A DNA stretch of 64,000 nt from Stieleria marina (GTDB lineage Bacteria > Planctomycetota > Planctomycetia > Pirellulales > Pirellulaceae): positions 6,559,719-6,623,718 of the forward strand of contig NZ_CP036526.1 in assembly GCF_007741555.1 (NCBI RefSeq). Direction: 5' to 3'. The notes under the pieces are model-generated. The model did not search any database and was not told the DNA's origin. It saw only the letters and a list, made by a program, of their open reading frames with translations. Shown one piece after another: positions 7,283 through 44,679 of this stretch. The stretch's first letter is position 1. Each line of letters starts with the position of its first letter. The translations under genes were made by a program, and so were the position numbers.

Positions 7283-7522
7283 CGCAGTATTGCCGATTGT
7301 TTTCGTGGGCCAGGAGCATTCACCAACAGCTGGCGACAAAGCCAACTGATACGCCCATCTTATCCGGCTGCAATTTTGGCGGCAACATTGACATGCCAAT
7401 GGTGGACAGATCGTTGGCCTCTCAGAGGAAAAGAAACAGAAAGGTGCAATTCGCTCGAGAGGGCGTTATCTTGTCAAGTCATTCCTCACCCGTTTCATAT
7501 TCGTATCAGTGATTGCCAATTC

Positions 7523-15377: not shown

Positions 15378-15480
15378 GTCGTTAATGTAAATGATCGATC
15401 GGCTGCCCGGTTGAAATTTTGCCGTGATCAACCATAGTCGACAGCTTATTGCCGTTTACAGAGAGCCTCAGAATTCCGCG

Positions 15481-16548: not shown

Positions 16549-16885
16549 CCATCTGATCGGCAGTTGCCCGACTCTATTGCGCCACACAAATCGACGCGCC
16601 GTACGTGAAGTAGCTTGAAAATTCGGCAAGTCGGGCGGACGACTGATATGTTTAACAGCGGTGCAATCGCCTCGCGACCAGATCGACGCTAAAATTGACC
16701 GAAAGTACTTGGCGGTACTGATCTCCGACGGGTACTGATACCATGCGCCGCCGACCGATCCATCCTGGTGCCGTTGCTTGACGTCATTGGGATTCGTATT
16801 TTCTGTCTTTGACGTGCAGCCCTATCCCATGACTGATCGCTTTCTTTCGCCGCGCCGCAAACGGCTGATCGCGTTAGATCGGCAT

Positions 16886-18874
16886 ATGAAACGGGTGGCT
16901 GTGGTTTTGCTGGCGATGATTCTGGGTTGCCAGAAACTTGCCCAAGACGCTCCCGAGGATACCGCTCAGCAGCGGACATCCACGTCCGACGTCACGAACG
17001 ATTCGTCAAAAGCAGCGCCGGTTCAGACGGACGCGCGCGAGTCCGTTTCAATGAAACAGGTCAAGTCAGATGCGCCGACCAAACCGCAATGGATTGGATC
17101 AGAGTCTTGCCGTGAATGCCACACTGATCGACACGAAAGCTACCAGCAATCGCACCACAGTCGATCGCTCACTGCCGTTGATGCCAGTACGGAAAAGCTA
17201 GACGACAAAATCCTACACGAACGTAGCCATCGGAAGTATGAAGTCACTAAGCGAGGTGACACAGTTTGGCACATCGAAAAACTGTTGGAGCGATCGGGCG
17301 ACTCGACGGAACCGTTGACGCTCTCGGAGTTTCCGATTCGCTACGTGATGGGAAGCGGCAAATTTGCTAAAGGATACCTCGTCGCTGACGACGACTATTT
17401 GCTGCAATCGCCTCTGACTTGGTACGCAAAAAGCCAGCAGTACGGCATGTCGCCCGGTTATGACACGCCAATGCACGGAAGTTTTTCGCGAGCGATTACC
17501 GATCAGTGCTTGTTCTGTCACGCAGGCCACGTCGAACGCCGCGACAACAACCCACACCACTTTACAATCCACGAATTGGCAATTGGCTGTGAACGCTGTC
17601 ACGGCGCAGGCGGTGATCACGTCAAACACTACGAATCGCTGGCCGGAAAAGAATTGCCGTCGCAGACACCGCCAGCAAACGCGTCAATGATCAATCCAAC
17701 CAAGCTTTCTCGCGAAGCAGTGCAATCGCTTTGCGCGCAATGTCATCGGCAAGGCGTCGCGCCGGTCAGCGCACCTGGCAAGCAAGACTGGGACTTTCAA
17801 CCCGGCCAAGATTTTGCCGCCGTCAAATTCAACTACGACCTAATCAAAACCGATCCGCCAACCAATGAATTTGTAGGGCACTTCGCACAGTTGGGTGAAA
17901 GCAAGTGTTACCAACAGTCGCAAATGACCTGCATCACTTGCCACTCACCACACCAACACACCAGCGGCGACGCGCTGCACAATCTCCATCGCCAGCAGTG
18001 CAATTCGTGCCACCAATCAGAAGACCAAAGCTGTTCTCTGGAACTGCAAACACGAATCGACCAAGCACAGAACCGTTGCGTTTCGTGCCATATGCCCAAA
18101 CGCGACAGTAGCGTGCCGCACACGTCGACAACCGATCATCGAATTGCAGTTCATAATTCGGTGGCCCATCGTCCTCCCAATGGCGCCCCCGAAGCAGAGC
18201 CAACGCTCCTTAAAAAACCGGTCGTCTATCCACTCCAGGACGTACCGGAGTCGATGACACAGCAGCAGGCAGATCGGATGCGTGCCTTGGGCCTGTTCGG
18301 TTTGTTTCGGATGAATGTTGGCAATCCAAACATGGAATCGCTATTCAACGATGCAAACCGCGCGTTGACTCAGATCGCCAGTAGTGGCCAAGGTGACGAG
18401 GCCGTTTTTGCCGCGATGGCTTCGCTGACGCAGATACAATCACAAATGTCAGTTGCGAACCGAACCGAAGCTGCCCAGAAACACGAGTATGCCATGCGTT
18501 GTGCGCAAGAAGCCATCCGGTTGAATGAACTTGCCCCCGGCGGATCACACCCCACCGAAAGCCTGGGTGATGCGATGGAAGTTGCAGGCAAGTATTTCTC
18601 CAGCATCGGGCAGCACCAGCTAGCAGCCAGAGTTTTCCAGGACCTGACAGCAATTCGTCGCCGCAAATACGACTGGGCAACTCTGGGGCTCAGTCTCGGG
18701 AAGATCGGCGACAACGTCGGCGCGGCGAAAGCTCTTCGTCAAGCGATCCACATCCACGCGGGTGACCCGGACGTGTACGAGATACTTGCCATTGTATTGA
18801 AGTCGACTGATCCGACTGAGGCAGAGCGCCTGAATCGAATTGCCGCTCGATTGCGAGAAGCCGCCAAGCCCTAA
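16886..18874 (+). CDS. Multihaem c-type cytochrome lipoprotein (7 CxxCH motifs) with C-terminal TPR-like repeats
   Basis: Lipoprotein-like signal MKRVAVVLLAMILGC. Seven haem-binding motifs: CRECH, CLFCH, CERCH, CAQCH, CITCH, CNSCH, CVSCH. The C-terminal ~200 aa are helical repeats (TPR-like). Start set at the ATG at 16886. Confidence 0.75.
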   Translation: MKRVAVVLLAMILGCQKLAQDAPEDTAQQRTSTSDVTNDSSKAAPVQTDARESVSMKQVKSDAPTKPQWIGSESCRECHTDRHESYQQSHHSRSLTAVDASTEKLDDKILHERSHRKYEVTKRGDTVWHIEKLLERSGDSTEPLTLSEFPIRYVMGSGKFAKGYLVADDDYLLQSPLTWYAKSQQYGMSPGYDTPMHGSFSRAITDQCLFCHAGHVERRDNNPHHFTIHELAIGCERCHGAGGDHVKHYESLAGKELPSQTPPANASMINPTKLSREAVQSLCAQCHRQGVAPVSAPGKQDWDFQPGQDFAAVKFNYDLIKTDPPTNEFVGHFAQLGESKCYQQSQMTCITCHSPHQHTSGDALHNLHRQQCNSCHQSEDQSCSLELQTRIDQAQNRCVSCHMPKRDSSVPHTSTTDHRIAVHNSVAHRPPNGAPEAEPTLLKKPVVYPLQDVPESMTQQQADRMRALGLFGLFRMNVGNPNMESLFNDANRALTQIASSGQGDEAVFAAMASLTQIQSQMSVANRTEAAQKHEYAMRCAQEAIRLNELAPGGSHPTESLGDAMEVAGKYFSSIGQHQLAARVFQDLTAIRRRKYDWATLGLSLGKIGDNVGAAKALRQAIHIHAGDPDVYEILAIVLKSTDPTEAERLNRIAARLREAAKP

Positions 18875-19932
18875 AGATGCTCGATCGCGTAGAGCAGATC
18901 GATATTCTTCCAATCCGCACCGACATGCCGGAACATGTTGATCAGCTGCGCGCGGTGATGGGTGCCATGCATTGCGAGTTGGTTAATCGAGACGCCGATG
19001 CGAAAATTAATCGGCGGTCCACCGAATTGCGCCGATACGACCCGCTGAGTTTCCTGTGCTGTCAGTTGGTCCAGGTATTCGCGGCGTTGCGTGGAAAGCG
19101 AATCCCAATCCTTGCGAAGCGTTGCAATGGTTACGTCGTCGCGAGACGTTGGATACGCCACGGAACTACCCTTCCATATTTCCGGCCACCATCGCTCGCC
19201 GTCGTACAGGTGAAGCAGGGTTTTGCGGATCGTTCCCGGCCCCATCTGAAAATCACGATCCAAAGACTCAGCAGGCAAATCAGCCGCGAAATCCAAAACC
19301 TGTCGTGTTGCCCAGTCGTGGTACTGAAACAATCGCTTCACGGCCGCATCGTCGTACGGGCACGGTTGGTCTGTCGCATCGCTTACGTCCAGACCGTAGC
19401 CTTTCAAGGCCATGACCGAATCGCAGGACTGTTTCACCGACGCAGTTGCCAGCCGGTAAAAAATGTAATCAACTCCGCCCACAAGCGTTCGGTCAAACTG
19501 CCTTAAGTAGTTCAGCGCCTGTGCACGGTGGTGAACGCCATGGCTGGCGACGTGCAACAACAGATCAGACAAGACGTGATCATAAGGCGTTTTCTTGCTG
19601 TCCTGGTAGGAAATCCGACGGGCGAAACTGTCACCACGGTTTTCGTCGATAAGCTCCCGTCGTTGTTCCGCCACGACGGCCAATGCACGACGCAGCGTGC
19701 CAACTGACATGCCTGCCGGATCCGTTGAAAACGGCCGCCATGGGACCTCTTGCCAACGCTCCATCCAAACTTGTTCGGCAGTCAGAATGTGAAAAAGTGT
19801 GGCTCGGAGTGTTCCAAAACCCATCTCGCGCGGCGTATCAAGTTGTTGATCCGTCAATCCATCGCAAAGCGTCAGCACTTTGTCATTGGCCCAATCGTTG
19901 TACGTGTATAGGTCGTCAATCAGAATGGACAT
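18871..19932 (-). CDS. DinB/YfiT-like (DinB_2 superfamily) protein with two tandem DinB domains
   Basis: Two halves each carry the four-helix-bundle metal-site signature (HGVHHRAQALNYL and HGTHHRAQLINMF) and a DinB-like N-terminus (YNDWANDKVL...). Its stop overlaps the stop of the convergent cytochrome gene by 4 nt. Confidence 0.65.
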   Translation of the reverse strand: MSILIDDLYTYNDWANDKVLTLCDGLTDQQLDTPREMGFGTLRATLFHILTAEQVWMERWQEVPWRPFSTDPAGMSVGTLRRALAVVAEQRRELIDENRGDSFARRISYQDSKKTPYDHVLSDLLLHVASHGVHHRAQALNYLRQFDRTLVGGVDYIFYRLATASVKQSCDSVMALKGYGLDVSDATDQPCPYDDAAVKRLFQYHDWATRQVLDFAADLPAESLDRDFQMGPGTIRKTLLHLYDGERWWPEIWKGSSVAYPTSRDDVTIATLRKDWDSLSTQRREYLDQLTAQETQRVVSAQFGGPPINFRIGVSINQLAMHGTHHRAQLINMFRHVGADWKNIDLLYAIEHL

Positions 19933-20014: not shown

Positions 20015-23000
20015 TTACCGTGCGTTGGGTTTTGTCATCATCAGTTTGTAAGTTCCCGCGCCAAGTAGATCTTCGACACGGCTGCGCATTTCAGGCGTGA
20101 CTTCGACCTTGTACTTGTCCGTTTTCATGTGCACGACTTCGCCTTCTTTCAGTTCCATGCTGAACAGCAAGGCCTGTTTGCCAGGGTAGCCACGCAGAAT
20201 TTCACGCAAACCACTGATCGTGGATTCATCGTGTGTGTGTTCATCCAGCAAAATACGCATGCCGTGCGTGTAACGAGTATCCAAGTCAGTCAGTGGAATC
20301 AACTCATCGACAATCAAGTTCGATTCATCACCACCGCGGCGGTCGACTTTTCCTTTTGCCAACACGACGGCATCGGGGATCACGTGCTGACCTTGCTCGG
20401 CAAACTGCCGCGGCCACAGAATGCAGCGGATGCTCCCCTGCATGTCTTCCAAATCAAAGTTCGCGTACTTTGATGGCGCGCCTGGTTTGGGATTCTTTGT
20501 GTGAGCAATTTTGATACTGCTCAGCATGCCGCCCAAAATCACTTCGCCGCGTTCTTTGACTTCGGCCAGTCCGTCGGTCGTGTTTGTTCGGAACGTTGCC
20601 AGTTTAGGCTCAAATTCGGCCAGAGGATGACTATCGAGGTAGAAGCCCAACACTTCTTTTTCGGCCAGAAGTTTTTCGCGGTCGGGCATTTCATCCATGT
20701 CAGGCAAAGGCGTCGGCGCCGAGTTGCCGGTCGCCGCTTCTTCTTCCTCCTCGAAAGCACCGAACAGGCTAGTTTGACCAGACTTTTTGTCGGCCTGTAC
20801 TGCCGCCCCCGACTGCAACGCGCGCTCGATTACCGCTAGAAGCTGGCTGCGTTTTGCGTCAAAACAATCCATTGCACCAGCTTTGATCAACGTTTCGATT
20901 GCCGCCCGATTACACGACGACGGGTCGACTCGTTCGCAAAAATCAAAGATGTCTTTGTAAGGCCCGTTCTTCTTGCGTTCTTCTTCGATCGTGATTGACG
21001 TCGAACCACCGCAGCCTTTGATCGCCGAGAGTGCAAAGTGAATTTTGCCTTCAGCCACCGAAAAATCTGCCTCGCTAGTATTCACCGATGGATGACATAC
21101 ATCGATTTCCATTCGGTCGCAGTCCTCCATGTGTTCGACCAACGCGTCTTTGCGTTTGAAGTTTCGGCCGGAGATATCGCTCGACAGCAACGCCGCCATG
21201 AACTCGACCGGATAGTGTGCCTTCAGATACGCCGTCTGAAACGCGACCAGAGCGTAGGCTGTCGAGTGTGATTTATTGAAACCGTAACCAGCAAACTTGA
21301 CAATCAAGTTCCAGATATCATTGGCGTCTTTTTCGGCCAAGCCGTTTTCGATCGCACCTTTGATAAACGCTTCGTAGTTTTGGTCGATCAGTGCCTGCTT
21401 CTTTTTACTAATCGCCTTAATACAAGTGTACGCATTGGACAGCGGGATCTTGCCAAGTTTGTTCAGTATCCGCATCACCTGTTCTTGGTAAACCATCACC
21501 GAGTTGGTTTCTTCGCAAACCTCTTTCAGCACGGGGTGCTTGTACTCGGGCTGCTGTCGACCGTGCTTGATATTCACATAGTCGTCGACCATGCCGCCTT
21601 CCAACGGCCCCGGTCGATACAGCGCGGCCGTCGCGATGATGTCGGAGAAATGGTCCGGTTTCATCCGCGTCAGCAAGTCACGAATACCGCCTGATTCCAA
21701 CTGGAACACGCCCTTCGTTTCGCCACGCTGCAACAAGGCATACGACGCTTTGTCATCCAGGGGAAACTTCAACGGGTCAACGATTTTGCCTGTCGTCTGC
21801 TCAATCAATTTCACCGTTCGGCTCATGATCGTCAGGTTGCGTAGACCCAAAAAGTCCATCTTCAGCAATCCCGATGCTTCCACATCGTTCATTGCCCACT
21901 GCGTGATCACATCTTGCTTGCCCGGCACGCGGCCCAGCGGGACATACTCTGTCAGCGGTTTGTCAGCGATCACAACCGCGGCCGCGTGTGTGCCGACGTT
22001 TCGCGCAAGACCTTCGATTTTCATTGCTAGGTCCAGCAGCTCTTTGATCTCCGGATCACCATCGTAAGTCATCTTCAGGTCGGCACTTTTGTCGAGCGCC
22101 TTGGTGATCGTGATTTTCAACTCGTCCGGGATCATCTCGGTGATTTGGTTGACCCGCCCAAGCGGAATCCCCAGCGCGCGGCCGGTGTCTTTGATCGCCG
22201 CTTTGGCTGCCAAAGTTCCAAACGTCCCGATCTGGCAAACCATTTCGCTGCCGTACCGTTCTTTTACATAATCGATCACTTCGATACGACGCTCTTTTTC
22301 AAAGTCGATATCGATATCAGGCGGCTCGGTGCGGTTTTCGTCCAGGAACCGTTCAAACAGCAGGTCGTATTTCAGCGGACAAACGTGAGACATGTAAAGC
22401 GCAAAACAAACGATCGCGCCGACACCACTACCACGAGCCGTTGCCGAGATTCCTTGTCGCCGAGCGTGTAATACGAAGTCCCAAACGATCAGAAAATAGG
22501 TGGGGTAGCCGAGCGTATCGATCACTCCCAACTCGCGTTCCAACCTAGCCATCACCTCTTCGCTCAGTTCGCCGTCTTCTGCCCAGCGATCAGGTACATC
22601 TTGGTAGCGATCTTTGAGCCCCATGATGCAAAGTTCGCGCAGATATTGCAGCGGCGTCTTTTCATCGGGGCATTCAAAATCGGGGAAGTAGTAAGTGCCC
22701 AACTGGATATCGATGTCGACCGTGTCCGCGATCTCTTGGCTACGTGCAACAGCGTGTTCCAGTCCAGGGAACTTGTCGTACATCTCATCTGGACTGCGCA
22801 AGAAGAACTGGTCGTTCTCCATCTTCATTCGCGATGTATCGGTGCGAAAACGTCCCGTGTTAATACAAAGCATGATGTCTTGGGCATCGGCGTCGCTTTG
22901 ATTGACGTAGTGGCAATCGCTGGTTGCAACCAACGGCAGCCCCATGCGATTGGCGATATCGACAGCACCATCCAACTGCATTTTTTGGATGTCGATACCG

Positions 23001-23644
23001 TTGTTCATGATTTCGATGAAGTAACGATCACCGAAAACCTTGTGGAACCAGCCAGCAACATCACGCGCCTGTTTTTCGACTTCAGCTGTGTCCGTTCCCT
23101 GCATCACGATGCGGCTGAATTCGCTACTGACACAACCCGACAAACAGATAATGCCTTCGCTGTGCGCTTCCAGAATCTCTTTGTCGATTCGCGGCTTATA
23201 GTAAAACCCTTCCAGCGAAGCAGCACTGGCCAGTTTGATCAGATTTTTGAAACCCGTGTGATTTTTGGCCAATAGCGTCAAGTGATAGCTGGCGTCCTTG
23301 GACCGTCCCGCGCCACCTTTATCAAAACGGCTGCCCGGTGCGATGTAGGCTTCGTAACCGATAATCGGATTGATGTTGGCCGCTTTTGCTTTGCGATAAA
23401 ACTCCAACGCACCGTGCAGGTTGCCGTGATCGGTTAGCGCGAGCGCACTCATGCCGTGATCGACTGCGCGGTTGACCAATTTGCCAATGTCCCCCGCTCC
23501 ATCCAACAAGCTGTAGTGGCTGTGACAGTGAAGGTGAGTGAACGGGCGGACCTGCGTTTCGCTGGACGGGTCTTGGGCCCCTTGGGTTTCGATCGTTGCA
23601 ACGGCTGCGTCTGACATAGCAATTCGATTTTGGTATCGTGACAA
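20015..23644 (-). CDS. dnaE: DNA polymerase III alpha subunit
   Basis: PHP domain FTHLHCHSHYSLLDG at the N-terminus, polymerase core motifs (KMDFLGLRNLT, fingers/palm region) and an OB fold near the C-terminus. ~1200 aa. A start 27 nt downstream (MSDAAV, ATG at 23617) is equally possible. Confidence 0.92.
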   Translation of the reverse strand: MSRYQNRIAMSDAAVATIETQGAQDPSSETQVRPFTHLHCHSHYSLLDGAGDIGKLVNRAVDHGMSALALTDHGNLHGALEFYRKAKAANINPIIGYEAYIAPGSRFDKGGAGRSKDASYHLTLLAKNHTGFKNLIKLASAASLEGFYYKPRIDKEILEAHSEGIICLSGCVSSEFSRIVMQGTDTAEVEKQARDVAGWFHKVFGDRYFIEIMNNGIDIQKMQLDGAVDIANRMGLPLVATSDCHYVNQSDADAQDIMLCINTGRFRTDTSRMKMENDQFFLRSPDEMYDKFPGLEHAVARSQEIADTVDIDIQLGTYYFPDFECPDEKTPLQYLRELCIMGLKDRYQDVPDRWAEDGELSEEVMARLERELGVIDTLGYPTYFLIVWDFVLHARRQGISATARGSGVGAIVCFALYMSHVCPLKYDLLFERFLDENRTEPPDIDIDFEKERRIEVIDYVKERYGSEMVCQIGTFGTLAAKAAIKDTGRALGIPLGRVNQITEMIPDELKITITKALDKSADLKMTYDGDPEIKELLDLAMKIEGLARNVGTHAAAVVIADKPLTEYVPLGRVPGKQDVITQWAMNDVEASGLLKMDFLGLRNLTIMSRTVKLIEQTTGKIVDPLKFPLDDKASYALLQRGETKGVFQLESGGIRDLLTRMKPDHFSDIIATAALYRPGPLEGGMVDDYVNIKHGRQQPEYKHPVLKEVCEETNSVMVYQEQVMRILNKLGKIPLSNAYTCIKAISKKKQALIDQNYEAFIKGAIENGLAEKDANDIWNLIVKFAGYGFNKSHSTAYALVAFQTAYLKAHYPVEFMAALLSSDISGRNFKRKDALVEHMEDCDRMEIDVCHPSVNTSEADFSVAEGKIHFALSAIKGCGGSTSITIEEERKKNGPYKDIFDFCERVDPSSCNRAAIETLIKAGAMDCFDAKRSQLLAVIERALQSGAAVQADKKSGQTSLFGAFEEEEEAATGNSAPTPLPDMDEMPDREKLLAEKEVLGFYLDSHPLAEFEPKLATFRTNTTDGLAEVKERGEVILGGMLSSIKIAHTKNPKPGAPSKYANFDLEDMQGSIRCILWPRQFAEQGQHVIPDAVVLAKGKVDRRGGDESNLIVDELIPLTDLDTRYTHGMRILLDEHTHDESTISGLREILRGYPGKQALLFSMELKEGEVVHMKTDKYKVEVTPEMRSRVEDLLGAGTYKLMMTKPNAR

Positions 23645-25387: not shown

Positions 25388-28300
25388 CTATGCCTTCTCG
25401 TCGCCAGCCGAATTGAATTCGTCTTCGATCTGGTTGTACGTGGACAACATATTGTCGAGTTGTTCGCCCAGTTTGCTCAAGTCACGACCGTTGTCGATGG
25501 ATTCGGCCAGGATCGGTCGTAGCCATTCTTGCATGAGGTGGAATTGACCTTTGATTAGATCGGCTAGCACTCGAGGAACTTTGTGTTGGACAAAGACTTT
25601 CTGATCCGGCGGAGTCGCTTGGTGGTTGCTAATCGCTTCGAGCTGTTTGCTAGTTGCGCCCAGCGTTTCAGCCAGTTGATTGCCGCTGACCGACAGTGTT
25701 TGACGAATGCTGTCGATCCGTGCGTCCATACGTTCCTCCGCACCGTCGTTTTGCATCGCAATGGCTTTGCTGATGACTTGGCGAATGCTCTCCAAACCGT
25801 CTCGCATCGATGCGAGCTGCCGCATCAACTGGCCGGCTTGGTCCTCGCTGTCCATGCCTTGCATCCGCACACTTTCGACGAATGAATACTTGATACTGTC
25901 CCAACGTTCTTTCTCTTCGACCGACAGGATGCCCATCAATTCCTTGAATTTCAGCACGTTGGCCTCGTTATCGGTCGTCAGTGTCTGAGCGTCTTGTTCG
26001 TAGGCGCTGACGATCAAACTTTGTAGTTCCTGTTCGTTCATGACGCTTGCGACCTTTTCGGCCATGCGATTCATGTTTCGATACGAACCCTGAAGCTTGA
26101 ACGGTGGCTCGGTGCGGTAAGCGTCGGCTTGCGCGGCACTACGAATGTAGGCGCGGTTGACTCGCAGCACGACATCTCGGATGCGAAGCAGCTTTCGCAT
26201 CACTTCGTACATCTCACGGACTTCGTCCATGGAAATATTGCTTTGCAGTTCAATGCCTTCGATGCTGTCACGCTGTGCGGCACGAATGATCGCTCGAGCG
26301 TCTTCGGGCGGCGCGGTTCCCAGAGGTGCCAATGTTCCGTTGCTGGTCAGACAGTTTTCCAAGTAACTCATCTCAAACGCGTCAGCACTATCGCCGATGA
26401 TCTCGCCCAGGTTGTAGACGTCGGCACGGTTGGACAGCATGTCGGGAATCTGGAACCGTTCGCCCGATTCGGTGTACGGATTGCCCGCCATCACGACCGC
26501 GACACGTCGACCGCGAAGGTCATATGTTCGCGTCTTGCCGTTGCGCACGCCTTCAATCTTTCGCGTTGCATCACAAAGCGAGATGAATTTCTGCAGCAAC
26601 TCGGGATTAGTATGCTGAATGTCGTCCAAGTACAGCATCACGTTGTCGCCCATTTCCAAGGCGAGGTTCAGTCGTTCGATTTCTTCGCGAGCCGCCGCAT
26701 TGGGTGCTTCCGCCGGATCCAGCGACGTGACACCGTGACCGATGGCGGGCCCGTTGATCTTCATGAACACAACGCCCAAACGATTGGCGATGTACTCCAT
26801 CAGTGTGGTCTTGCCGTATCCCGGAGGCGAAATCAGCAGCAACAATCCCATGCGGTCGGTGCGTTTGTCTTCGCCAGCCGATCCCATCTGTTTGGCCAAG
26901 TTGTCACCGATCATCGGCAAGTAGACTTCGTCAAGCAATTGGTTGCGAACAAAACTGGTCAGCACACGCGGCTTGAATTCTTCCAGTCGCATGTCGTCGC
27001 GAGCGGTGTCGACGATGCGAGTCTTTGTTTCTTGCAGGCGACGGAAACGAGGCACGACGTCACCGCGATAGCTGCGAACGCGTCTGAGCATTTCGTGGTA
27101 GTGAACCCCAAGGGTTCCCTTGACGATTCGATCGTGGCTGCCTGCGATGTCCGAGAGCTTTTCAGCAACGGTCGCGTCTGTAGTGCGGAACGATTCGTTG
27201 CCGCCCGATAGAATGACCCATGCCAATTCGTCAACGTAGTTCACCGCTGGGTCGGCTTCGTCGCTCTGGTCATGCGTGTCGATAAAGGCGACGGCCCAGT
27301 TGCGTGCCAGGATGAAGGCTCGAACAGGATCGGACTCGGACGTTTTCAGTGCGGCAGTGAGCAGCTTTTGGCGTTCGTCGGCAGGAATGCTCTCAGCGAA
27401 TTCCTCGAACAGTGCCGCAGCGCGACCACTGGCGACCGTTTTCTTGGGTGCGTGCGTGAGCTGGTCGAAAAGGTAGTCAGCGATGCGATGAGCAGAAACT
27501 TCGTTGGCACCTTGTGACCCGCTGCCGCTCCCCAGGGACTCTTGCGATTCTGACAGCGACGGTGAAGTACCCGTAGCGAGTGCCCGCGTCTGACGTGTGT
27601 CGAAAAGGGGCTGCCATTGATCTGATTGTGCGTCGGCTAGATCGATCAGTCTGGTCCGGAACTCGATAGCTGGCTGTGCATTGGGGTAGGCCTTAGCCAG
27701 TTTTGCGAAGCCGCCGATCCAATCGGTCATCGCCTTGCGGCTCTTGGCATCCAACAATTTGGTGAACCACAGGTTCGCCGCGGCGCGCACGCTGGGTGCG
27801 TGACGCAAAAGATCGATCGATGAATCGAACTGGAGCAAGGAACCCAGAATCGCTGCGGTGTCATGATCGTGGACGCCCTTCGAGTAGCCTTCGTCGAATC
27901 GGCCGCTGATCTGCGTCTGCACCCATGAAGATGTCGTCGCCTCGGGAAAGGCGATCTCGCCGGCCTTGATCTGCTCGAACAAATCCACGGCCAAATACTC
28001 AGCGCGATAAACGTTCTTGTTTTCGCTGATCAGTTCTTGATTCCAAAGATCTTTACTAGACGTCAGTGCTTCGTCGACAAGCGGTTCGAAGAACTGCGTC
28101 CCGGTCAGGTGCATGCACATTTCGCCGCCACGCAGGACGGTCGTTAGATCCAAAGGCTGTGTATTGACGGAGAAACGGTGCTTGCCCAATCGAATCACGT
28201 CGCCGCCATCTTCGTACAGATCTTGGCGGTCCTTCAGCTGACGCGTGGCATCTTCGCGAACGGTTTTCAACCGGCTTTGCAAATCACCGACGCGGACGGC

Positions 28301-30721
28301 GTCATCCAAATCGCCCAACTGGTCAATGATGTCACGAACTTTTTCCACCATCAAATCGCCAGCGAAGTACGCGGCGATCTCGTCGGTCGATTCCATTTTC
28401 CCGACTCGTGAATTGATCCCTTTCAGGATTCGATCAGCGGCGGCGGAAAGCGACTCTGCTCGACGATTCCGTTTTTCGATCAGCTGGACTTTTCGCGATT
28501 CAAACGCTGCGTAAACGTCTTCACGTCGCGTCGTCAACTGCATTACAAAATCGTCAAACTCGGCGAAGCGGCCTTCCAGCTCCTCCAGTTGCACCATGAC
28601 CTTGGTCAGGTACTCGTCACATTTTTCGGGCGCGTCACAAACGTCCAAGTAGCCCGAAGTGGTTTGCTCCAACAGTTTCATCTGCGACGCAAATTCAGCG
28701 CGTCCCTCAGTGCTGGCTAGTTCACCGACACGAGCCTTCAGTGAGCTGCGAACTCGGTTTAGCGAAGCAAAAACGTCGCCGATATTGTCGATAATTTCCG
28801 TGCGTTTGGTGGTGTCTTCGATTCGCAGATTGCTGACAGTTTCGGTCAGCAGTTCCAATTGCGAAGCAGCCGTATCGACTTCTTCGCTCAACGCATTGGC
28901 TTCGCTGACGGTCGAAACTTCGACGACTTTTTCACCAGCAGTCGCGACGCGTTCTTGATAAGGATCCAGCGCGCCGGGAGTCAGCAAGAAATCGACACAA
29001 CGCCGACTAACGCGTTCCGCTCGTTCGGCGGTTTGTGTTTCCAGGTCGTCGATGATTGTCTCATCGACATAGCGAAGCTCCTTCAGGCCAAGTGCGTGTC
29101 CGCGTTGTTCACGCAGTTTGGCAAGTGTGTCGACAAAATCGTCGATCGACTCAAAACGACTGCGTTCAATTTCCTTGATCAAGCTTTCGACGGCACTCTG
29201 GACATCTTTGGTCCTTGCGGCCGTATCACGTCGTACGCGAACCACTTTGTCGAACTCTTCGACAGCAGCGTTGGCAGCTTCGCGAATCTTGCGGATCGGT
29301 TCCGCAAGCTTTTGCGTTTCCTCTTTGTCGATCCAAAAATAGCTATCCAGCACGTCCGACGACTTTTTTCCTAGGTCGACATACAGACCGTCGTAGCTGT
29401 CATCTTTGTCAATCAAACTCAGCATTTCGTTGCATTCGGCCATGCCGCGTACAATTTCTTTGTTGCCAATTTTGAACAACAAAGAATCGGTTTGATTGTC
29501 GGGAACGTAATTGGGCCCAGTGAAGGGCGTTTGCCAAACTTGGATTGGGTGGTGTTTTTGCGCTTCGTCGTGAGTCGAGAAACAGACCATCTCGCCTTTC
29601 TCGAAAAACGTTTGGCCGTGGCAGACCAATGGCGTCTCGACGGTTTGCGAAATCAGGTTGTAGCGAAGCTGGATGTAGGTGCCTGTCGCTGGATTATAAA
29701 ACAGATACAGGTAGTCTTCGCCATTGGAAGCAGCGACGGTGCGTTGATACCGCATGTCGGCTTGGCCGTGATCGAAGCGTTTGAATTCACCCGTTTGCAG
29801 ATAGTAGCCGCCGGGAAAAATGATCCCGTGATCACCAGGCAGCATCACGGCAGCGTGCTCGATTTCATCCAACCGCATCGCTTGTTGGATTTTGTCGTTG
29901 TAAACCAGATAACGCGTGACGTCTTCCTGGTACGGCTTCATTTTCAGCAGTACCAAGTTGCCGATGATCGCGTAGTGAATCTCGGCGTCATCTAGCGTTT
30001 GATCCGGATTATCAACGGGTTCTGCGTAGATGCCTTCGCCGGATTCGGTATTGTTTTCGACTTTGATCGTCAGGTCACCGCCGACGGTTTCGACAAAGAC
30101 CTTGTCATCGATTGAAATGTGAGGGTGAGCACCGTAATGATGCTGATCGCGAGTTGTGCGAGTCCAACGGAATTCGTGTTGAGCCGGTTCGCGAACTTCA
30201 TGTTCGGATCGATTGTCGAGGTATTCGATCGAAGTCGGCGTGACCCGCCATTTAAACGACTTGATGTCGCGAGCGGTTTTGCCGACTTGGAAGACCATAT
30301 GAAGCATTGGCCCCACACGGAAAAAGCGTGCGAAAGTCGTGCCTTTGTAGAATTTGTACAGTTCGTGAAAGTCCGACTCGAACTTCTTGTCTCCGATGAC
30401 CTCCAACGATGATTCGTGGAACTGGTTGTCAGCGAATTTGTAAACGCTGAAGACATCCGCCAGTTCGATTTCGGTTTTCAACCCAAACTGAACGTTGTAG
30501 CCGAATAGAAACTCGTCGCCGATGGAGACCAAGTCTCTGGGGATACAGTTGTGCTGAGTCGTGACACGCTCGGTCGAAATCAAGTGCGTGTCGATGTTGC
30601 CGAAGACTTCGGCGCGTTCTTCATTCAGCTTGGCCAGACGGGTACGCAATTCGCCCGCCGCATCACGCAAGCGATTGCGGAGTACTTCGTATGTGCCGGC
30701 TGCGAGTTGAGTGTCGGACAT
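25388..30721 (-). CDS. Giant (1777 aa) AAA+ ATPase of the AAA_5 (MoxR/dynein/McrB-like) type, with a ~420-aa N-terminal globular region and a long alpha-helical/coiled-coil middle region
   Basis: ATG at 30721. Walker A LLLISPPGYGKTTLMEY, Walker B VMLYLDDIQH and a sensor-1-like VVMAGNPY lie around residues 1270-1430. Residues ~430-1200 are strongly helical and E/R/D-rich. It is co-directional with the upstream flotillin and NfeD-like genes. Confidence 0.7.
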   Translation of the reverse strand: MSDTQLAAGTYEVLRNRLRDAAGELRTRLAKLNEERAEVFGNIDTHLISTERVTTQHNCIPRDLVSIGDEFLFGYNVQFGLKTEIELADVFSVYKFADNQFHESSLEVIGDKKFESDFHELYKFYKGTTFARFFRVGPMLHMVFQVGKTARDIKSFKWRVTPTSIEYLDNRSEHEVREPAQHEFRWTRTTRDQHHYGAHPHISIDDKVFVETVGGDLTIKVENNTESGEGIYAEPVDNPDQTLDDAEIHYAIIGNLVLLKMKPYQEDVTRYLVYNDKIQQAMRLDEIEHAAVMLPGDHGIIFPGGYYLQTGEFKRFDHGQADMRYQRTVAASNGEDYLYLFYNPATGTYIQLRYNLISQTVETPLVCHGQTFFEKGEMVCFSTHDEAQKHHPIQVWQTPFTGPNYVPDNQTDSLLFKIGNKEIVRGMAECNEMLSLIDKDDSYDGLYVDLGKKSSDVLDSYFWIDKEETQKLAEPIRKIREAANAAVEEFDKVVRVRRDTAARTKDVQSAVESLIKEIERSRFESIDDFVDTLAKLREQRGHALGLKELRYVDETIIDDLETQTAERAERVSRRCVDFLLTPGALDPYQERVATAGEKVVEVSTVSEANALSEEVDTAASQLELLTETVSNLRIEDTTKRTEIIDNIGDVFASLNRVRSSLKARVGELASTEGRAEFASQMKLLEQTTSGYLDVCDAPEKCDEYLTKVMVQLEELEGRFAEFDDFVMQLTTRREDVYAAFESRKVQLIEKRNRRAESLSAAADRILKGINSRVGKMESTDEIAAYFAGDLMVEKVRDIIDQLGDLDDAVRVGDLQSRLKTVREDATRQLKDRQDLYEDGGDVIRLGKHRFSVNTQPLDLTTVLRGGEMCMHLTGTQFFEPLVDEALTSSKDLWNQELISENKNVYRAEYLAVDLFEQIKAGEIAFPEATTSSWVQTQISGRFDEGYSKGVHDHDTAAILGSLLQFDSSIDLLRHAPSVRAAANLWFTKLLDAKSRKAMTDWIGGFAKLAKAYPNAQPAIEFRTRLIDLADAQSDQWQPLFDTRQTRALATGTSPSLSESQESLGSGSGSQGANEVSAHRIADYLFDQLTHAPKKTVASGRAAALFEEFAESIPADERQKLLTAALKTSESDPVRAFILARNWAVAFIDTHDQSDEADPAVNYVDELAWVILSGGNESFRTTDATVAEKLSDIAGSHDRIVKGTLGVHYHEMLRRVRSYRGDVVPRFRRLQETKTRIVDTARDDMRLEEFKPRVLTSFVRNQLLDEVYLPMIGDNLAKQMGSAGEDKRTDRMGLLLLISPPGYGKTTLMEYIANRLGVVFMKINGPAIGHGVTSLDPAEAPNAAAREEIERLNLALEMGDNVMLYLDDIQHTNPELLQKFISLCDATRKIEGVRNGKTRTYDLRGRRVAVVMAGNPYTESGERFQIPDMLSNRADVYNLGEIIGDSADAFEMSYLENCLTSNGTLAPLGTAPPEDARAIIRAAQRDSIEGIELQSNISMDEVREMYEVMRKLLRIRDVVLRVNRAYIRSAAQADAYRTEPPFKLQGSYRNMNRMAEKVASVMNEQELQSLIVSAYEQDAQTLTTDNEANVLKFKELMGILSVEEKERWDSIKYSFVESVRMQGMDSEDQAGQLMRQLASMRDGLESIRQVISKAIAMQNDGAEERMDARIDSIRQTLSVSGNQLAETLGATSKQLEAISNHQATPPDQKVFVQHKVPRVLADLIKGQFHLMQEWLRPILAESIDNGRDLSKLGEQLDNMLSTYNQIEDEFNSAGDEKA

Positions 30722-30783
30722 GGTGTTCGTGTATTCTCGTTCTTGCGCTCGACGCGGAGATGATGCTGAATCTGTCGTTGCTT

Positions 30784-30916
30784 GCGACTCTCCCTTGGGG
30801 AGAGCAAATCCTTAGCGAGGAGAGGTCGAAACGGTGATGCTATCCCTACCGATGCCGTATCACTGATTACGTTCTCCGCCCGCTACTACATCCGGCTCTC
30901 CCGATGGGAGAGTCGC
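30784..30916 (-). other. Pair of near-identical hairpins (CTCTCCC-N3-GGGAGAG) with extended complementary flanks, in the flotillin-ATPase intergenic region
   Basis: gcgactctcccTTGgggagag at 30784-30804 and ggctctcccGATgggagagtcgc at 30894-30916. The 5' arm of the first (gcgactctccc) is complementary to the 3' arm of the second (gggagagtcgc). Confidence 0.4.
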
Positions 30917-30950
30917 TTGCCAATCGTGCAATCACGATTTGGATCGGTCA

Positions 30951-33050
30951 CTAGGCTTTGCCGTTGGTCGGCTTGGCCTGAGCGGCTAATAGTCGACCGG
31001 CTTTTTGGTCGGCGACGTTGGCGGTGCCGGCCATACCCAAAAGGCTGGTCAGCGATGACCGAACGTCTTCGGTTTTGGCCATGCCCATCATTTTAGCGAT
31101 CAAAGCCGCAATCGAGAGATCTTTGACGCCGTCGGTGTCCAAATCGAATTGGCTCATCATCGACGTGATCTGGTCTCGAAAGTAATCAGCATTTCCATCG
31201 AAGAACGTGTCTTTGATGTCGGTAGCTACGCGGCTGTTGTAAACGAATCGGTCGATCGCTTTGCCACCTTTGACTGCCGAAGTGATCTGGTCGAAGAACT
31301 CGCCGTCGCCACCGACAATGTCGATGCGAGCTGCTTTGAGTGCTTCGCCCACCACACCGGCTTGGCTTTCCGCAATGCCACGTTGTGCATCGATCGCTGC
31401 AATTTCGACATCCTTTTCTTTGTTCAGCGACAGCTTGAACTCTTCGTGCTCTTTACCGACGGTGTCCAAGATTTTCATAGCTTCGGCTTTCTCGGTGATA
31501 CCTTGAGCCTCGCTGCGGAACTTCTCTAGTTCCACGTTGGCTTCGGCAAGACCTTGCTTTTCGATCGCTTCGGCTTTGGCGGAAATGCCTTTCGCTTCGG
31601 CGACCGCTTTGCTTTGTAAGACGGTCGCTTCGGCGACACCCTCTTTTTCCAAGCTAACCGCACGAGCTTCTTGGACCTGAACGTCAGCCAAACCAGGAGC
31701 AGCTTTGGTAGCCGCGTCGGCTTCTGCCAACATTTTCAAACCAGACGCTTCCTTTTCGGCCGCATCGCGTTTTGCTTCCGCATCGACACGGATTTTGTCA
31801 GCCAAGTACGATGCCGCTTCTTTTTCGGCTTGAGCTTGTTGAGTCTGACGAATCAGTTCTTCCTGAGCCTTCATTTCTGCAGCGGTCACTTGGACCTTCT
31901 TCAGACGGTCAGCTGCGGCGAACTCTTCGGTATCTTTGATTCGCTCTTGCTCTTCGACCACAGCTCGCTCGACGGCGACCCGTTCGCGAATCACTTCTTG
32001 AATGTTCCGTTTTTCGACTTCGATGGCCTTTTCTTTTTCGACGTCGGCAACACCGACCACGCGGAGGCGTTCGGTTGCTTCTAAATCGCGGTCACGATTG
32101 ACTCGCTCTAGTTCGACCGCGTCAGTCTTCTCTTTGCTACGCTGGGCCACCAAGACTTGACGTTGTTTATTTTCTTCGGCGACGCCCAGCTCTTCTTCGG
32201 TGGTGATTCGAGCTCGCTCGGATTCTAGACGCTGCTCTTCTTCGACCTTTTTGGATGAAGCTCGTTCGCGGGCAGTGATCTCGGCGATTTCGCGAGTTTG
32301 CTTCTCGACGGCTTCGACACGCTGACGTTCCAGAGCCAAGATTGTCTCTTCTGCTTCGACGTCTTGCTTCTTTAGCGTCTTTTCTTTGTCGCGTGTAAAC
32401 TGGTTCTCTTTGACTTTTTCGTTGGACGTCAGCTCGGTGATCTTCTTGATACCTTCGGCGTCCAAGATATTCGTGGGCGAGAGCATCTCGAGCGGTGTTT
32501 GCTCCAGGTAGTCAATCGCGGCGTCATCTAGCTGGTAGCCGTTCAGGTCGGTACCGATGACTTTCAAGATCTCTTCTTTGAACTTGTCACGCTGATCATA
32601 CAAGTCGACAAAATCGAATTGCTTGCCGACTGTTTTCAAGGCTTCCGAAAACTTGGCGTCGAACAACTCACGTAGTGTTTCTAGTTCGGAGCATCGCTTT
32701 GCACCGATCGACTGAGCCACTTCCTTCATCTGCTCTTCGCTGCTGTCGACGCGGATAAAAAAGGCGACCTTGATGTCGGCACGGATGTTGTCACGACAGA
32801 TCAAACCTTCGCTGCCTTGACGACTGATCTCGAAGCTTTTCAGCGTCAAGTCCATGTATTCGACTCGGTTGATCACGGGATAGATCAACATGCCGCCTGC
32901 AGTGGTGACGTCCATGGCGCCCCAGCCCGTCTTGACGATGGCTTTGTCGGGACCGACGACCAGGTAACAGCTTTTGACGACCGATACAACAATCACGACT
33001 AGCACGAGGGCCAGGATGATGATGGCTGCAAAAATGGTAATGGGATCCAC
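30951..33050 (-). CDS. Flotillin-like SPFH/band-7 protein (YqiK type) with a long Glu/Ala-rich coiled-coil flotillin domain
   Basis: N-terminal TM helix (ITIFAAIIILALVLVVIVVSVV). The SPFH core (AIVKTGWGAMDVTTAGGMLIYPVINRVEYMDLTLKSFEI...) is followed by ~350 aa of EA-rich repeats. GTG start 2 nt after the stop of the upstream NfeD-like gene. Confidence 0.85.
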   Translation of the reverse strand: MDPITIFAAIIILALVLVVIVVSVVKSCYLVVGPDKAIVKTGWGAMDVTTAGGMLIYPVINRVEYMDLTLKSFEISRQGSEGLICRDNIRADIKVAFFIRVDSSEEQMKEVAQSIGAKRCSELETLRELFDAKFSEALKTVGKQFDFVDLYDQRDKFKEEILKVIGTDLNGYQLDDAAIDYLEQTPLEMLSPTNILDAEGIKKITELTSNEKVKENQFTRDKEKTLKKQDVEAEETILALERQRVEAVEKQTREIAEITARERASSKKVEEEQRLESERARITTEEELGVAEENKQRQVLVAQRSKEKTDAVELERVNRDRDLEATERLRVVGVADVEKEKAIEVEKRNIQEVIRERVAVERAVVEEQERIKDTEEFAAADRLKKVQVTAAEMKAQEELIRQTQQAQAEKEAASYLADKIRVDAEAKRDAAEKEASGLKMLAEADAATKAAPGLADVQVQEARAVSLEKEGVAEATVLQSKAVAEAKGISAKAEAIEKQGLAEANVELEKFRSEAQGITEKAEAMKILDTVGKEHEEFKLSLNKEKDVEIAAIDAQRGIAESQAGVVGEALKAARIDIVGGDGEFFDQITSAVKGGKAIDRFVYNSRVATDIKDTFFDGNADYFRDQITSMMSQFDLDTDGVKDLSIAALIAKMMGMAKTEDVRSSLTSLLGMAGTANVADQKAGRLLAAQAKPTNGKA

Positions 33051-33052
33051 GG

Positions 33053-33769
33053 TTAGCTCTCCGAGTTGATTTTGGTGACGGTGTAGATGCGTTTACTGCG
33101 ATTGAAATCGATGATTCGGACTTCCGTTCCGCGTGGAAACGTCGAACCGTCAGTGCGTACGTTCAGCAGCAGAGGGGCTGCATTTGTACGAAACTTAGCT
33201 TGCCCATAAGAAGGGTTGGCTTCGATCGACGATATTTCACAAGTTGAACCCAGCATTCGGCTGGAATCGTAGCCGGGTTCTTTGTCGAATTTGCCGACCA
33301 GAGGCTGCGTAACTGGTTTAGTGATCAAGACCGCTATAACCGCGTTGCGAATGGTCAACAGAATCGACGGGATCAACGTGGCCGAATAACGATGCACATC
33401 GAAACCGTGCCACAGCGAATAGGAGATTCCCCAAAGAGCCAACGTGAAGACGCCGCCCCAGATCGCGATGGGAATACGGCCAAAGTTGGACCACCGAACC
33501 GTCATCGCGCCCAAGCTGCCGAACAGCCCAGGGTGATTCAAGTCGGCTCCCTCCACGCCTCCGCCGCCCATGTCCACATCAACGACGTCCAAATCTGGCA
33601 CATCAAGGTCCACATTCATGTCGACATCCACATCCAGTCCGGCATCAAAATCACCGACACCCAGCGCTGCGACGCCAGAGTAAATGATCATCAGCGCCAG
33701 CATGATGGATGCTGGCCAAATGGGACCGACAAGAAAGTTATCGCTGAATTGGGTGACGATTTCGGACAC
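33053..33769 (-). CDS. YqiJ/NfeD-like membrane protein (flotillin-associated)
   Basis: The N-terminal half has multiple TM helices with an acidic, D-rich loop (DVDVDMNVDLDVPDLDVVDVDMGGGG). The C-terminal ~80 aa form an OB-fold-like tail (...VRTDGSTFPRGTEVRIIDFNRSKRIYTVTKI). Its position immediately upstream of the flotillin gene matches the yqiJ-yqiK/nfeD-floT arrangement. GTG start. Confidence 0.6.
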   Translation of the reverse strand: MSEIVTQFSDNFLVGPIWPASIMLALMIIYSGVAALGVGDFDAGLDVDVDMNVDLDVPDLDVVDVDMGGGGVEGADLNHPGLFGSLGAMTVRWSNFGRIPIAIWGGVFTLALWGISYSLWHGFDVHRYSATLIPSILLTIRNAVIAVLITKPVTQPLVGKFDKEPGYDSSRMLGSTCEISSIEANPSYGQAKFRTNAAPLLLNVRTDGSTFPRGTEVRIIDFNRSKRIYTVTKINSES

Positions 33770-42948: not shown

Positions 42949-44679
42949 GTGAACGAATCATCCAACGGCGAGTTCGATTCATCGCAGGCTTACGGCCTTT
43001 CGGCAGACTCAGAATCGGCGTCCGGCAGTCCCGATGTGTCCGCGCGAGGCGACTACCAATGGATTCAGTCCGGTGACATCAACGCTTTTTTTGGGCTGAT
43101 GCTGGACAACATCGTTGGACTGATGCTGATGGTCAGTTTGCTAGTCGGCTTTGGGTTTCCAAAAGAATTTGCTGTCGGTGCGATGGTACCTGGCACGGCA
43201 CTGGGCGTCATGATCGGCGACCTGGTGTTCTTTTTTCTGGCATTCCGATTGGCCAAGCAAACCGGTCGCTCCGATGTCACGGCAATGCCACTTGGCCTGG
43301 ATACTCCGTCGACGTTTGGCTACACGCTTTTCATTCTGGGGCCATCGTATTTGCAAGGTATCAACGCACTGGGATTGGCTCCGATCGATGCCGCGCATCG
43401 CACCTGGTACATCGGCATTTGGTGCATCGTGATGAGCGGCGTGATCAAACTGGCCTTGGCACCCATGACGGAATGGATTCGCCGCGTGGTCCCTCGTGCT
43501 GGGCTTCTGGGCTCCCTGGCGGCAATTGCATTAGTACTGATTAGCTTTATCCCGCTGACAGACATTCTGGGACATCCGCTGCCTGGAATCTTGGCCTTGG
43601 TCATCGTTCTCACCACCCTGATTGCACGCGTCCCATTGCCCGGACGAACTCCGGGAACTCTGGGCGCACTGATCATTGCTGGCGGTGTTTACTATGCGAT
43701 CTGCGCGGTCGGCGGATTCGGATATGAATTTCCCGTGACACCGACGGTGCAGTGGATGCCCACCAAATGGCTCGAAGCGTGGCAGTTTCAATGGATCGGT
43801 GCCTTTGCAGACGCAGTGCCTTACTTGCCGATTGCTTTGCCATTTGCCATCGGAACAGTTGTCGGCGGCATTGACTGCACCGAAAGCGCTGCGGCGGCGG
43901 GCGATCACTACGACACAAGAACCGTGATTGGCGTCGAAGCGATTGCGACACTTTTAGCGGGACTCTCCGGCGGCGTGATTCAAACAACTCCTTACATCGG
44001 ACATCCCGCTTACAAGGCCATGGGCGGTCGCGCGGCGTACACACTTGGCACGGCATTGTTGGTGGGTTCGGCCGGACTGATCGGCTACTTTGCATTGCTT
44101 GAATCTTGGATTCCTAAGCCGGTCGTGATGCCGATCCTGGTTTTCGTGGGACTCGAAATCACCGCCCAGAGTTTCTTGGCAACGCCCCGGCGACACTACG
44201 CCGCCGTCGCTTTGGCCTGCCTGCCCGCCCTGGCTGTGTTGGCCATGAATATCCCCGGGCGGATGTTTGGCGACGGCGCACTCATGGGAGCAGGCATTGG
44301 CCCTGATTCTCTTGCAAATGACGATCTTCGCGCAAGCATCAAAACGCTGACGATGTTAAGCAGCGGCTTTATCCTGACCAGTCTTCTTTGGGCATGGATG
44401 CTGGCAGCTGCCATCGACCGAAAATTAAAAATGGCAAGCGTCGTTCTGTTCGCTGCAACGTTGCTTACCTTGTTCGGCGTAATGCACTCACCGCTGCCAG
44501 GCAACCAATTATTCCTGCCCTACGGCCCCGAAAGCTGGGGCGATATCGTTATCGACGCTGACAATCGCCCACACGTTTTTGAGTTCGCTGCCGGCTATGC
44601 CATCGCCGCAGTTTTCTTCTTCACTTGGTCGTTCTATCCAGGAACTTACCAAATAAATCATCTAACAAACGAACACTGA
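42949..44679 (+). CDS. Polytopic integral membrane protein, probable permease (possibly NCS2/AzgA-like)
   Basis: 576 aa with more than 10 hydrophobic segments. The family assignment is tentative and I have not matched a signature. Confidence 0.45.
   Translation: MNESSNGEFDSSQAYGLSADSESASGSPDVSARGDYQWIQSGDINAFFGLMLDNIVGLMLMVSLLVGFGFPKEFAVGAMVPGTALGVMIGDLVFFFLAFRLAKQTGRSDVTAMPLGLDTPSTFGYTLFILGPSYLQGINALGLAPIDAAHRTWYIGIWCIVMSGVIKLALAPMTEWIRRVVPRAGLLGSLAAIALVLISFIPLTDILGHPLPGILALVIVLTTLIARVPLPGRTPGTLGALIIAGGVYYAICAVGGFGYEFPVTPTVQWMPTKWLEAWQFQWIGAFADAVPYLPIALPFAIGTVVGGIDCTESAAAAGDHYDTRTVIGVEAIATLLAGLSGGVIQTTPYIGHPAYKAMGGRAAYTLGTALLVGSAGLIGYFALLESWIPKPVVMPILVFVGLEITAQSFLATPRRHYAAVALACLPALAVLAMNIPGRMFGDGALMGAGIGPDSLANDDLRASIKTLTMLSSGFILTSLLWAWMLAAAIDRKLKMASVVLFAATLLTLFGVMHSPLPGNQLFLPYGPESWGDIVIDADNRPHVFEFAAGYAIAAVFFFTWSFYPGTYQINHLTNEH

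Follow-up and report, generated by a model that had tools for sequence, protein, structure and literature searches.

A flotillin-linked DUF3686 ATPase module in Stieleria marina and its counterparts across bacterial phyla

What does a very large AAA+ ATPase do beside a flotillin gene, and does the arrangement belong to a system that has already been described? Both questions are raised by three genes on the minus strand of a 64,000-nucleotide (nt) stretch of Stieleria marina DNA (Planctomycetota, Pirellulaceae; RefSeq assembly GCF_007741555.1, contig NZ_CP036526.1, positions 6,559,719 to 6,623,718), the whole of which is called the window here. In order, the genes encode a small membrane protein of the YqiJ/short-NfeD type, a flotillin-like SPFH protein and a DUF3686-family ATPase (Table 1). 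An earlier note, made from the letters alone, had called the arrangement undescribed and unassignable; it had also placed three open reading frames (ORFs) on one strand, and all three were found exactly where it put them. We report that the cluster is very probably a Pirellulaceae copy of the known YqiJ/flotillin/DUF3686 ATPase module. The claim of novelty fails, as this module is published and named.

The operon was described, with or without PspA, by Ravi, Anantharaman, Aravind, Gennaro and colleagues (mSystems 2024, PMC11237479; preprint 2020). Its order is CesT/Tir - PspA - YqiJ/YuaF - Band-7+coiled-coil+flotillin - 'beta-propeller+coiled-coil+AAA-ATPase', and abbreviated operons holding only flotillin, YqiJ/YuaF and sometimes the AAA+ ATPase are widely distributed (PMC11237479). 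The paper's example is the Dokdonia ANH61663.1 neighborhood; the window agrees with the described operon in its domain architectures and in the order of its genes. Hidden Markov models (HMMs) for PspA, Tir-like, DUF2170 and PLD proteins had no match in the 64-kb window, and since it lacks PspA and CesT-Tir (DUF2170) genes, it carries the abbreviated form. Flavobacteriaceae and Hymenobacter loci in our set show the full form, with genes homologous to those of the window.

In Pseudomonas aeruginosa, a homologue of the ATPase (P0123) aligns with it over the full length at 39% identity (alignment A1) and represents a single 90%-identity cluster with 3,222 member sequences. Its context (locus L009) reads DUF2170 - PspA - 213 amino acids (aa) - 688 aa - DUF3686 ATPase - PLD - YaeQ - RecJ - M4 peptidase, the last of which we take to be LasB, and corresponds to PA3732-PA3724. 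Genes PA3732-PA3727 (PA14_16140-16200) are bacABCDEF, the 'biofilm-associated cluster' (Mace 2008, Wallart 2024). The window genes are homologous to bacC (213 aa), bacD (688 aa) and bacE (1,746 aa), with matching order and strand, so that the supposedly unassignable arrangement equals bacC-bacD-bacE (PA3730-PA3728). Reverse transcription-PCR has shown bacA to bacF to be one transcript, including the junction between bacD and PA14_16190 (bacE), and all bac partners are raised 6- to 13-fold in a bacA mutant (Wallart et al. 2024, PMC10948618). The PspA-like PA3731 (BacB) is induced by osmotic shock (PMC2587700), and phage infection induces PA3728-PA3732 (PMC12041424). Mutants in bacA and bacB are impaired in forming biofilm, in making rhamnolipids and in virulence, and a swarming defect has been shown solely for the pA3731 (bacB) mutant (PMC10948618, PMC2587700). 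A review table lists PA3728 ('ATPase') among the genes mutated in three independent studies of cystic-fibrosis isolates. An identity of the locus with Arc3 (Ting et al., eLife 2022) was rejected: Arc3 is PA5113/PA5114, and PA3729 figures in that paper only as a background protein.

Linkage of the ATPase to flotillin was assessed in two collections. A tblastn search of a plasmid collection returned 13 ATPase homologues at 37-49% identity, in Hymenobacter, Streptomyces, Nonomuraea, Deinococcus, Pseudomonas (pQBR103), Proteus, Halomonas, Vibrio and Photobacterium. Eight plasmid or misfiled-chromosome loci (Bacteroidota, Actinomycetota, Deinococcota and Gammaproteobacteria) were fetched; in all eight, a flotillin homologue (32-50% identity) shares the strand of the ATPase and stops less than 300 nt before it, and in seven a YqiJ-like gene precedes the flotillin. 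A scan of one genome per GTDB species gave at least 589 relatives, and 80 loci from Planctomycetota, Bacteroidota, Verrucomicrobiota, Desulfobacterota and Clostridia were kept. Of the 72 genome loci with at least 1 kb of sequence upstream of the ATPase, 67 (93%) have flotillin there on the same strand (median gap, about 150 nt); of the 59 with at least 3.5 kb, 52 have a YqiJ-like gene as well. Flotillin and ATPase identities, taken pair by pair, are correlated (r = 0.82, 65 loci). The flotillin-ATPase linkage far exceeds chance expectation and holds in many bacterial phyla. The earlier note had proposed such a neighborhood analysis and allowed that the adjacency could be coincidental, with ATPase homologues never linked to flotillin; these counts clearly speak otherwise. 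PspA is linked to the ATPase in 18 of 58 loci (about 31%), far less often than flotillin, which points to flotillin/NfeD as the constant partner of the ATPase. Even close Pirellulaceae relatives have different genes on either side of the module, so it moves or persists as a unit.

Some loci carry additional genes (Table 1). A PLD (HKD) gene, the bacF counterpart, follows the ATPase directly or within about 1.5 kb in loci of Vibrio, Pseudomonas and some Verrucomicrobiota; the PLD gene of L034 is on the opposite strand and adjoins a PspA gene. In several Bacteroidota loci, small genes (Uma2-type, DUF559 endonuclease-like or TonB_C) stand between flotillin and ATPase or replace flotillin, which suggests insertions into the operon.

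The ATPase was assigned by profile, alignment and model. Residues 24-462 match all of Pfam DUF3686 (PF12458; model positions 1-448 of 448; E = 6.6e-191; 635.1 bits, cutoff 25), and residues 584-665 match DUF7902 (PF25472; 1.8e-27). Weak Pfam matches to AAA, RuvB_N, AAA_22 and AAA_5 cover residues ~1285-1418, with AAA at 31.1 bits and AAA_5 at 22.0 bits, exactly at its cutoff of 22. An AAA_5-type ATPase had been named as the sole recognizable catalytic module; the AAA/AAA_5 match holds, AAA_5 just at cutoff, and DUF3686 and DUF7902 are matched as well. Walker A (SPPGYGKT), Walker B (LYLDD), GNPY, R1432 and QGSYR (1544-1548) are invariant in 66 diverse members (alignment A1), and because these motifs are intact the ATPase is very likely to be catalytically active. 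In the AAA+ module, a beta-hairpin at residues 1388-1401 precedes the sensor-1 GNPY (1413-1416), and a MoxR-type AAA+ fold is present. The middle region has family-invariant motifs of its own in the same alignment (G846, F850, E900, G949-x-H951 and D954).

An AlphaFold2 (AF2) model and a search for representative clusters used residues 1-1200 of the ATPase. The model (mean predicted local distance difference test [pLDDT], 79; about 85 in the DUF3686 region) has an N-terminal helix, an all-beta domain (46-397), very long helices (414-835), a small beta domain (842-880) and a helical part to about residue 1170. Foldseek likened the all-beta domain to the propellers of CyRPA, the clathrin terminal domain, Ski8 and EED (probability near the maximum, ~1.0). 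AF2 modeling of the C-terminal part gave a pLDDT of 36-62 beyond about residue 1620, and the plasmid homologues align only to about residue 1650. As modeled, the protein is an N-terminal beta-propeller followed by a long helical region and an AAA+ module of the MoxR/dynein clade. Structure prediction of the N-domain and helical arm had been advised by the earlier note, and it yielded this propeller and these long helices.

More than 5,393 homologues were found in a large protein collection, the named ones mostly called 'DNA repair ATPase'; clustering at 50% gave 1,354 clusters, nearly all of the same architecture and of 1,600-1,900 aa. The 120 closest are 65-92% identical, and all named ones among them come from Pirellulaceae or related Planctomycetota. 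A sequence-profile search of the PDB found no solved family member and only a P-loop match. The ATPase sequence lacks a signal peptide, consistent with a cytoplasmic location; Pfam recognized no protease domain in it, and no transmembrane (TM) segment was noticed, formal prediction aside. A literature search found no publication on DUF3686/PF12458 or on flotillin with 'DNA repair ATPase', and the literature was reached only via gene context. One metagenomic representative (P0263, 1,345 aa) is an apparent fusion of NfeD1b_N (ClpP-like) to DUF3686 via a 280-residue Arg/Pro/Ala-rich linker. It was rejected as a 'Rosetta stone' fusion, being a probable gene-calling artifact in GC-rich DNA with a linker that looks wrong-frame; it hints at a long-NfeD gene just upstream of the ATPase in that genome.

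From an N-terminal hydrophobic anchor, the flotillin-like protein runs through an SPFH/Band_7 domain and a long helical stretch rich in E, A and K to a conserved C-terminal domain (alignment A6). A Pfam scan (E <= 0.01) gave Band_7 alone (residues 31-174; 7.3e-11; 42.9 bits, cutoff 23.6), and NCBI calls its homologues 'flotillin family protein'. Just 4 of 17 operon-partner homologues reach Band_7 at that threshold, so the SPFH subgroup appears divergent; the flotillin profile had QmcA as its sole and weak match in the PDB (E = 0.002). In a close relative (L091, carrying P0005; positions 6970-9136), the flotillin gene is split into two called ORFs of 404 and 316 aa, with a 217-aa ORF directly next to the ATPase, probably the result of a frameshift in a low-coverage (5x) assembly.

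In the 238-aa protein, an N-terminal TM helix is followed by an acidic loop of D-x-D repeats, a further pair of TM helices and a beta-rich, OB-like C-terminal domain; 16 operon-partner homologues from other phyla share this layout (alignment A4). The 238-aa protein itself has no significant Pfam match (YqiJ_N, E = 0.89); across the 17-member family, YqiJ_N is matched by 10, NfeD by 3 and YqiJ_OB by 1. It is 30% identical to a Hymenobacter protein that NCBI names DUF1449 (tblastn, E = 1.8e-10), and a YqiJ profile found no solved relative in the PDB. The acidic D-x-D-x-D loop (DVDVDMNVDLDVPDLDVVDVDM; residues ~44-90, window 33500-33640) lies between TM1 and TM2, and its composition, not its length, is kept in homologues from all phyla of that alignment. 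It might bind cations.

The first two genes are separated by 2 nt (...GAGAGC TAA CC GTG GAT...), as had been read from the letters, and GGAG lies about 10 nt 5' of the flotillin GTG; the spacing suggests translational coupling of the YqiJ-like and flotillin genes. In relatives, the gap has a median of 16 nt and is at most 25 nt in 41 of 61 loci, with a 4-nt overlap in nine. A scan upstream of the first gene for sigma-54 (TGGCAC-N5-TTGCW) and sigma-70 sites gave nothing above chance, and a TGGC...TTGCA string abutting the GTG start was ruled out as a sigma-54 site by its wrong spacing. Neither a consensus promoter, for sigma-70 or for sigma-54, nor a T-tract terminator was seen within or just upstream of the cluster.

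The flotillin-ATPase spacer is unusually structured (minimum free energy, -82.3 kcal/mol; z = -3.47, with 0 of 200 dinucleotide shuffles as stable), which bears out the 229-nt structured spacer of the earlier note in length and in folding. It forms a long hairpin on two perfect CTCTCCC-N3-GGGAGAG palindromes (30788-30804 and 30896-30912), both unique in the window, where 0.01 would be expected by chance. No T-tract terminator was found in the spacer, and no Rfam family in the spacer or leader. Its sequence is not conserved even against a relative with a 90%-identical ATPase, so a specific conserved RNA element was rejected and only structuredness recurs. Across phyla, z was below -2 in 23 of 34 loci (median, -3.0; spacers of 50-400 nt in loci L001-L086, with mononucleotide shuffles as control), in unrelated sequences; examples are L001 (z, -11) and L052 (z, -20). 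Such a spacer could be a recurrent intercistronic attenuator or stabilizer; that of the window may act as a partial terminator or transcript-stabilizing element that sets the flotillin:ATPase ratio.

Table 1. Coordinates of the module in the window and of extra genes in related loci
Feature	Coordinates	Strand	Remarks
YqiJ / short-NfeD-like membrane protein	33053..33769	-	238 aa, GTG start; counterpart of P. aeruginosa BacC/PA3730
YqiJ-like stop / flotillin start junction	33051..33055	-	TAA, CC, then GTG at 33048-33050
Flotillin-like SPFH protein	30951..33050	-	699 aa, GTG start; counterpart of BacD/PaFlo3/PA3729
Flotillin-ATPase spacer	30722..30950	-	229 nt, structured
DUF3686-family AAA+ ATPase	25388..30721	-	1777 aa, ATG start; counterpart of P. 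aeruginosa BacE/PA3728
DUF3686 domain: N-terminal helix, then all-beta propeller (residues 46-397)	29336..30652	-	PF12458, AF2, Foldseek
Long helical/coiled-coil arm, residues 414-835	28217..29482	-	Includes DUF7902 at nt 28727-28972; AF2 helices of 48-58 residues
Conserved middle region, residues 842-1170: small beta domain, then helical domain	27212..28198	-	AF2 model, A1 invariant columns
AAA+ module, ~residues 1285-1600	25922..26869	-	Walker A SPPGYGKT 26807-26830; Walker B MLYLDD 26621-26638
C-terminal helical tail, residues 1601-1777	25391..25921	-	Length varies between phyla; modeled at low confidence
PLD genes in other loci	L006 11864-12568; L009 13260-13952; L085 9259-10113; L087 12565-13269; L034 11462-11938		L034 on opposite strand
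Extra-gene sites in other loci	L027 4618-5704; L073 3841-5741; L059 4217-5767; L028 184-1258		

The best explanation, which we hold with modest confidence, is an envelope-stress membrane scaffold with a dedicated AAA+ remodeler, a mechanism that we infer. PspA (phage-shock) operons of the envelope-stress response contain the module in other phyla, and in P. aeruginosa it belongs to an envelope-stress regulon. The flotillin would be anchored by its N-terminal hydrophobic segment and would oligomerize on the cytoplasmic face of the inner membrane with its YqiJ-like partner, a scaffold proposed because other SPFH/NfeD pairs do so. The cytoplasmic ATPase would dock on this assembly via its propeller and helical arm and would use ATP hydrolysis, like other MoxR-clade AAA+ rings, to remodel its partner. 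Under membrane stress it would in this way assemble, open or recycle the flotillin/NfeD scaffold, or else a client that the scaffold holds. The hairpin-rich spacer would probably lower expression of the ATPase relative to the scaffold proteins. That flotillin/NfeD is the direct substrate of the ATPase is a plausible part of this, on which we lean slightly to the doubtful side.

Several points weigh against this explanation. In five of the 72 loci no flotillin adjoins the ATPase, and the link is thus less than absolute; the neighbors there are DUF389, Uma2, TonB_C, TPR, ABC permease and DUF559 genes. MoxR ATPases usually act with a VWA partner, which is absent here. The structure models of the ATPase are of monomers, at moderate confidence (pLDDT, 72-79), from alignments of two clades. 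As no promoter or terminator could be assigned in the window, its single transcription unit is taken over from the orthologues. In P. aeruginosa, deletion of the flotillin paFlo3 has a mild phenotype, with only about 20% less biofilm (PMC13086221), and the cited papers on that locus give the ATPase no function.

A more specific form of the remodeler proposal is possible, and we regard it as tentative. In it, the DUF3686 ATPase would be a dedicated ATP-driven assembly/disassembly machine for flotillin-NfeD cages, a MoxR-clade analogue of Vps4 for ESCRT-III, whose propeller grips the flotillin C-terminal cap and whose helical arm spans the dome. If so, turnover of flotillin microdomains would be active and energy-consuming, and the module could work without PspA.

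The Vps4 analogy can also be turned toward PspA itself. The ATPase would then disassemble polymers of PspA (ESCRT-III superfamily), and flotillin/YqiJ would merely recruit a PspA encoded elsewhere in the genome. PspA and CesT/Tir-like chaperone genes stand directly upstream in the Bacteroidota and Pseudomonas loci, and in Bacillus subtilis PspA is tied to the membrane through an SPFH protein (PMC8581546). Set beside the much closer tie of the ATPase to flotillin, this makes a PspA substrate improbable in our view.

The earlier note had also advanced the module as a candidate defense system, and an anti-phage or abortive-infection role, sensing perturbation of the membrane by phage, has some circumstantial points in its favor: PA3728-PA3732 are up-regulated in every phage-infected P. 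aeruginosa sample (PMC12041424), copies lie on megaplasmids (pQBR103) and on plasmids of Hymenobacter, Deinococcus and Streptomyces, the gene after the ATPase is of the PLD family in some loci, and Uma2 and DUF559 small endonuclease-like genes adjoin a few. Phage induction would be expected of any phage-shock/envelope-stress regulon, however, and no effector domain was found in the three-gene version. PADLOC-DB 2.0 returned a single match, of the ATPase P-loop to IetA (15 bits over 29 residues, E = 0.0028), which is not credible, and none for the two membrane proteins. The neighbors in the window are dnaE, an FGGY sugar kinase, an M50 peptidase with CBS domains, RbsD/FucU and oxidoreductases; these flanks are housekeeping genes, and nothing in the window suggests a defense island. 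The 3,222-member P. aeruginosa cluster resembles a core gene and not a patchy island gene, and the module is retained in the 120 closest homologues described above. We therefore consider a defense role very unlikely.

The names 'DNA repair ATPase' and 'ATPase involved in DNA repair' are attached to thousands of DUF3686 proteins; no publication supporting the label was found and no DNA-related domain was seen in these proteins, and its origin may lie in the short P-loop match to RuvB. That the ATPase is a true DNA-repair enzyme, with the flotillin adjacency reflecting membrane-tethered DNA processing, is hardly credible: beyond the Pfam/NCBI names and a local, 40-residue P-loop similarity to RuvB no support was found, even with dnaE (20015-23644) 1.7 kb from the module and recJ three genes downstream in P. 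aeruginosa.

The building, opening and recycling of bacterial flotillin/SPFH assemblies lack an assigned energy-dependent step, for which an AAA+ partner that is both conserved and dedicated is a strong candidate. Discovery of the operon is not ours and was already published. What is added here is how tightly the ATPase tracks flotillin compared with PspA, the structural assignment of its motor to the MoxR/dynein clade, the finding that the 'DNA repair ATPase' label stands on thousands of entries without visible support, and the recurrence across phyla of a structured flotillin-ATPase spacer. P. aeruginosa bacE (PA3728) offers a tractable place to study the function of the ATPase.

Elsewhere in the window, an ORF at 161-5608 (+) encodes an 1,815-aa protein with planctomycete-specific DUF1581 and DUF1583; it exceeds the ATPase, which had been taken for the largest ORF of the window and is the largest between 20 and 40 kb. 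A protein with PSCyt2/PSD1 is encoded at 13230-15431 (-). These families, together with closest homologues of up to 92% identity, fit a Pirellulaceae origin. A 353-aa ORF with tandem DinB-family domains (18871-19932, -) adjoins dnaE. Large ORFs without a Pfam match at the thresholds used are those at 16778-18874 (+; 698 aa), 8834-10597 (-; 587 aa) and 42949-44679 (+; 576 aa).

Among known systems, bac differs from the window in having bacA (DUF2170, CesT/Tir-like), bacB (PspA) and bacF (PLD); the window has no sigma-54 consensus upstream, its ATPase is only about 39% identical and its host is a planctomycete. Escherichia coli YqiJ-YqiK and B. subtilis NfeD2(YuaF)-FloT(YuaG) share with it a short NfeD-type gene tightly coupled upstream of a flotillin-like SPFH gene. 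They differ in that the window flotillin matches only Band_7 and the small protein falls short of the models for YqiJ and NfeD; to our knowledge, neither pair has a DUF3686 ATPase downstream.

The MoxR remodelers (CbbQ/CbbO, NorQ/NorD and RavA/ViaA, with dynein and midasin as relatives) share the fold of the motor. The window neighborhood differs from them in having no VWA partner: no VWA domain was found in the scanned neighboring ORFs of the window or in the annotated contexts L001-L004, L008 and L009. A known MoxR-vWA chaperone had been named as an identity that would undo the original proposal; the MoxR-type fold agrees with it and the lack of a VWA partner does not. The window AAA+ is, moreover, a single module at the end of a 1,250-residue extension of propeller and helices, and we know of no characterized MoxR protein that bears such an extension. 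HflK/C-FtsH is an SPFH cage that encloses an AAA+ machine at the bacterial inner membrane. FtsH is a membrane-anchored AAA+ protease of the classical clade, unlike the window ATPase with no recognizable protease domain; what the two share is the pairing itself, for which HflK/C-FtsH is a precedent as a dedicated functional union of SPFH protein and AAA+ machine.

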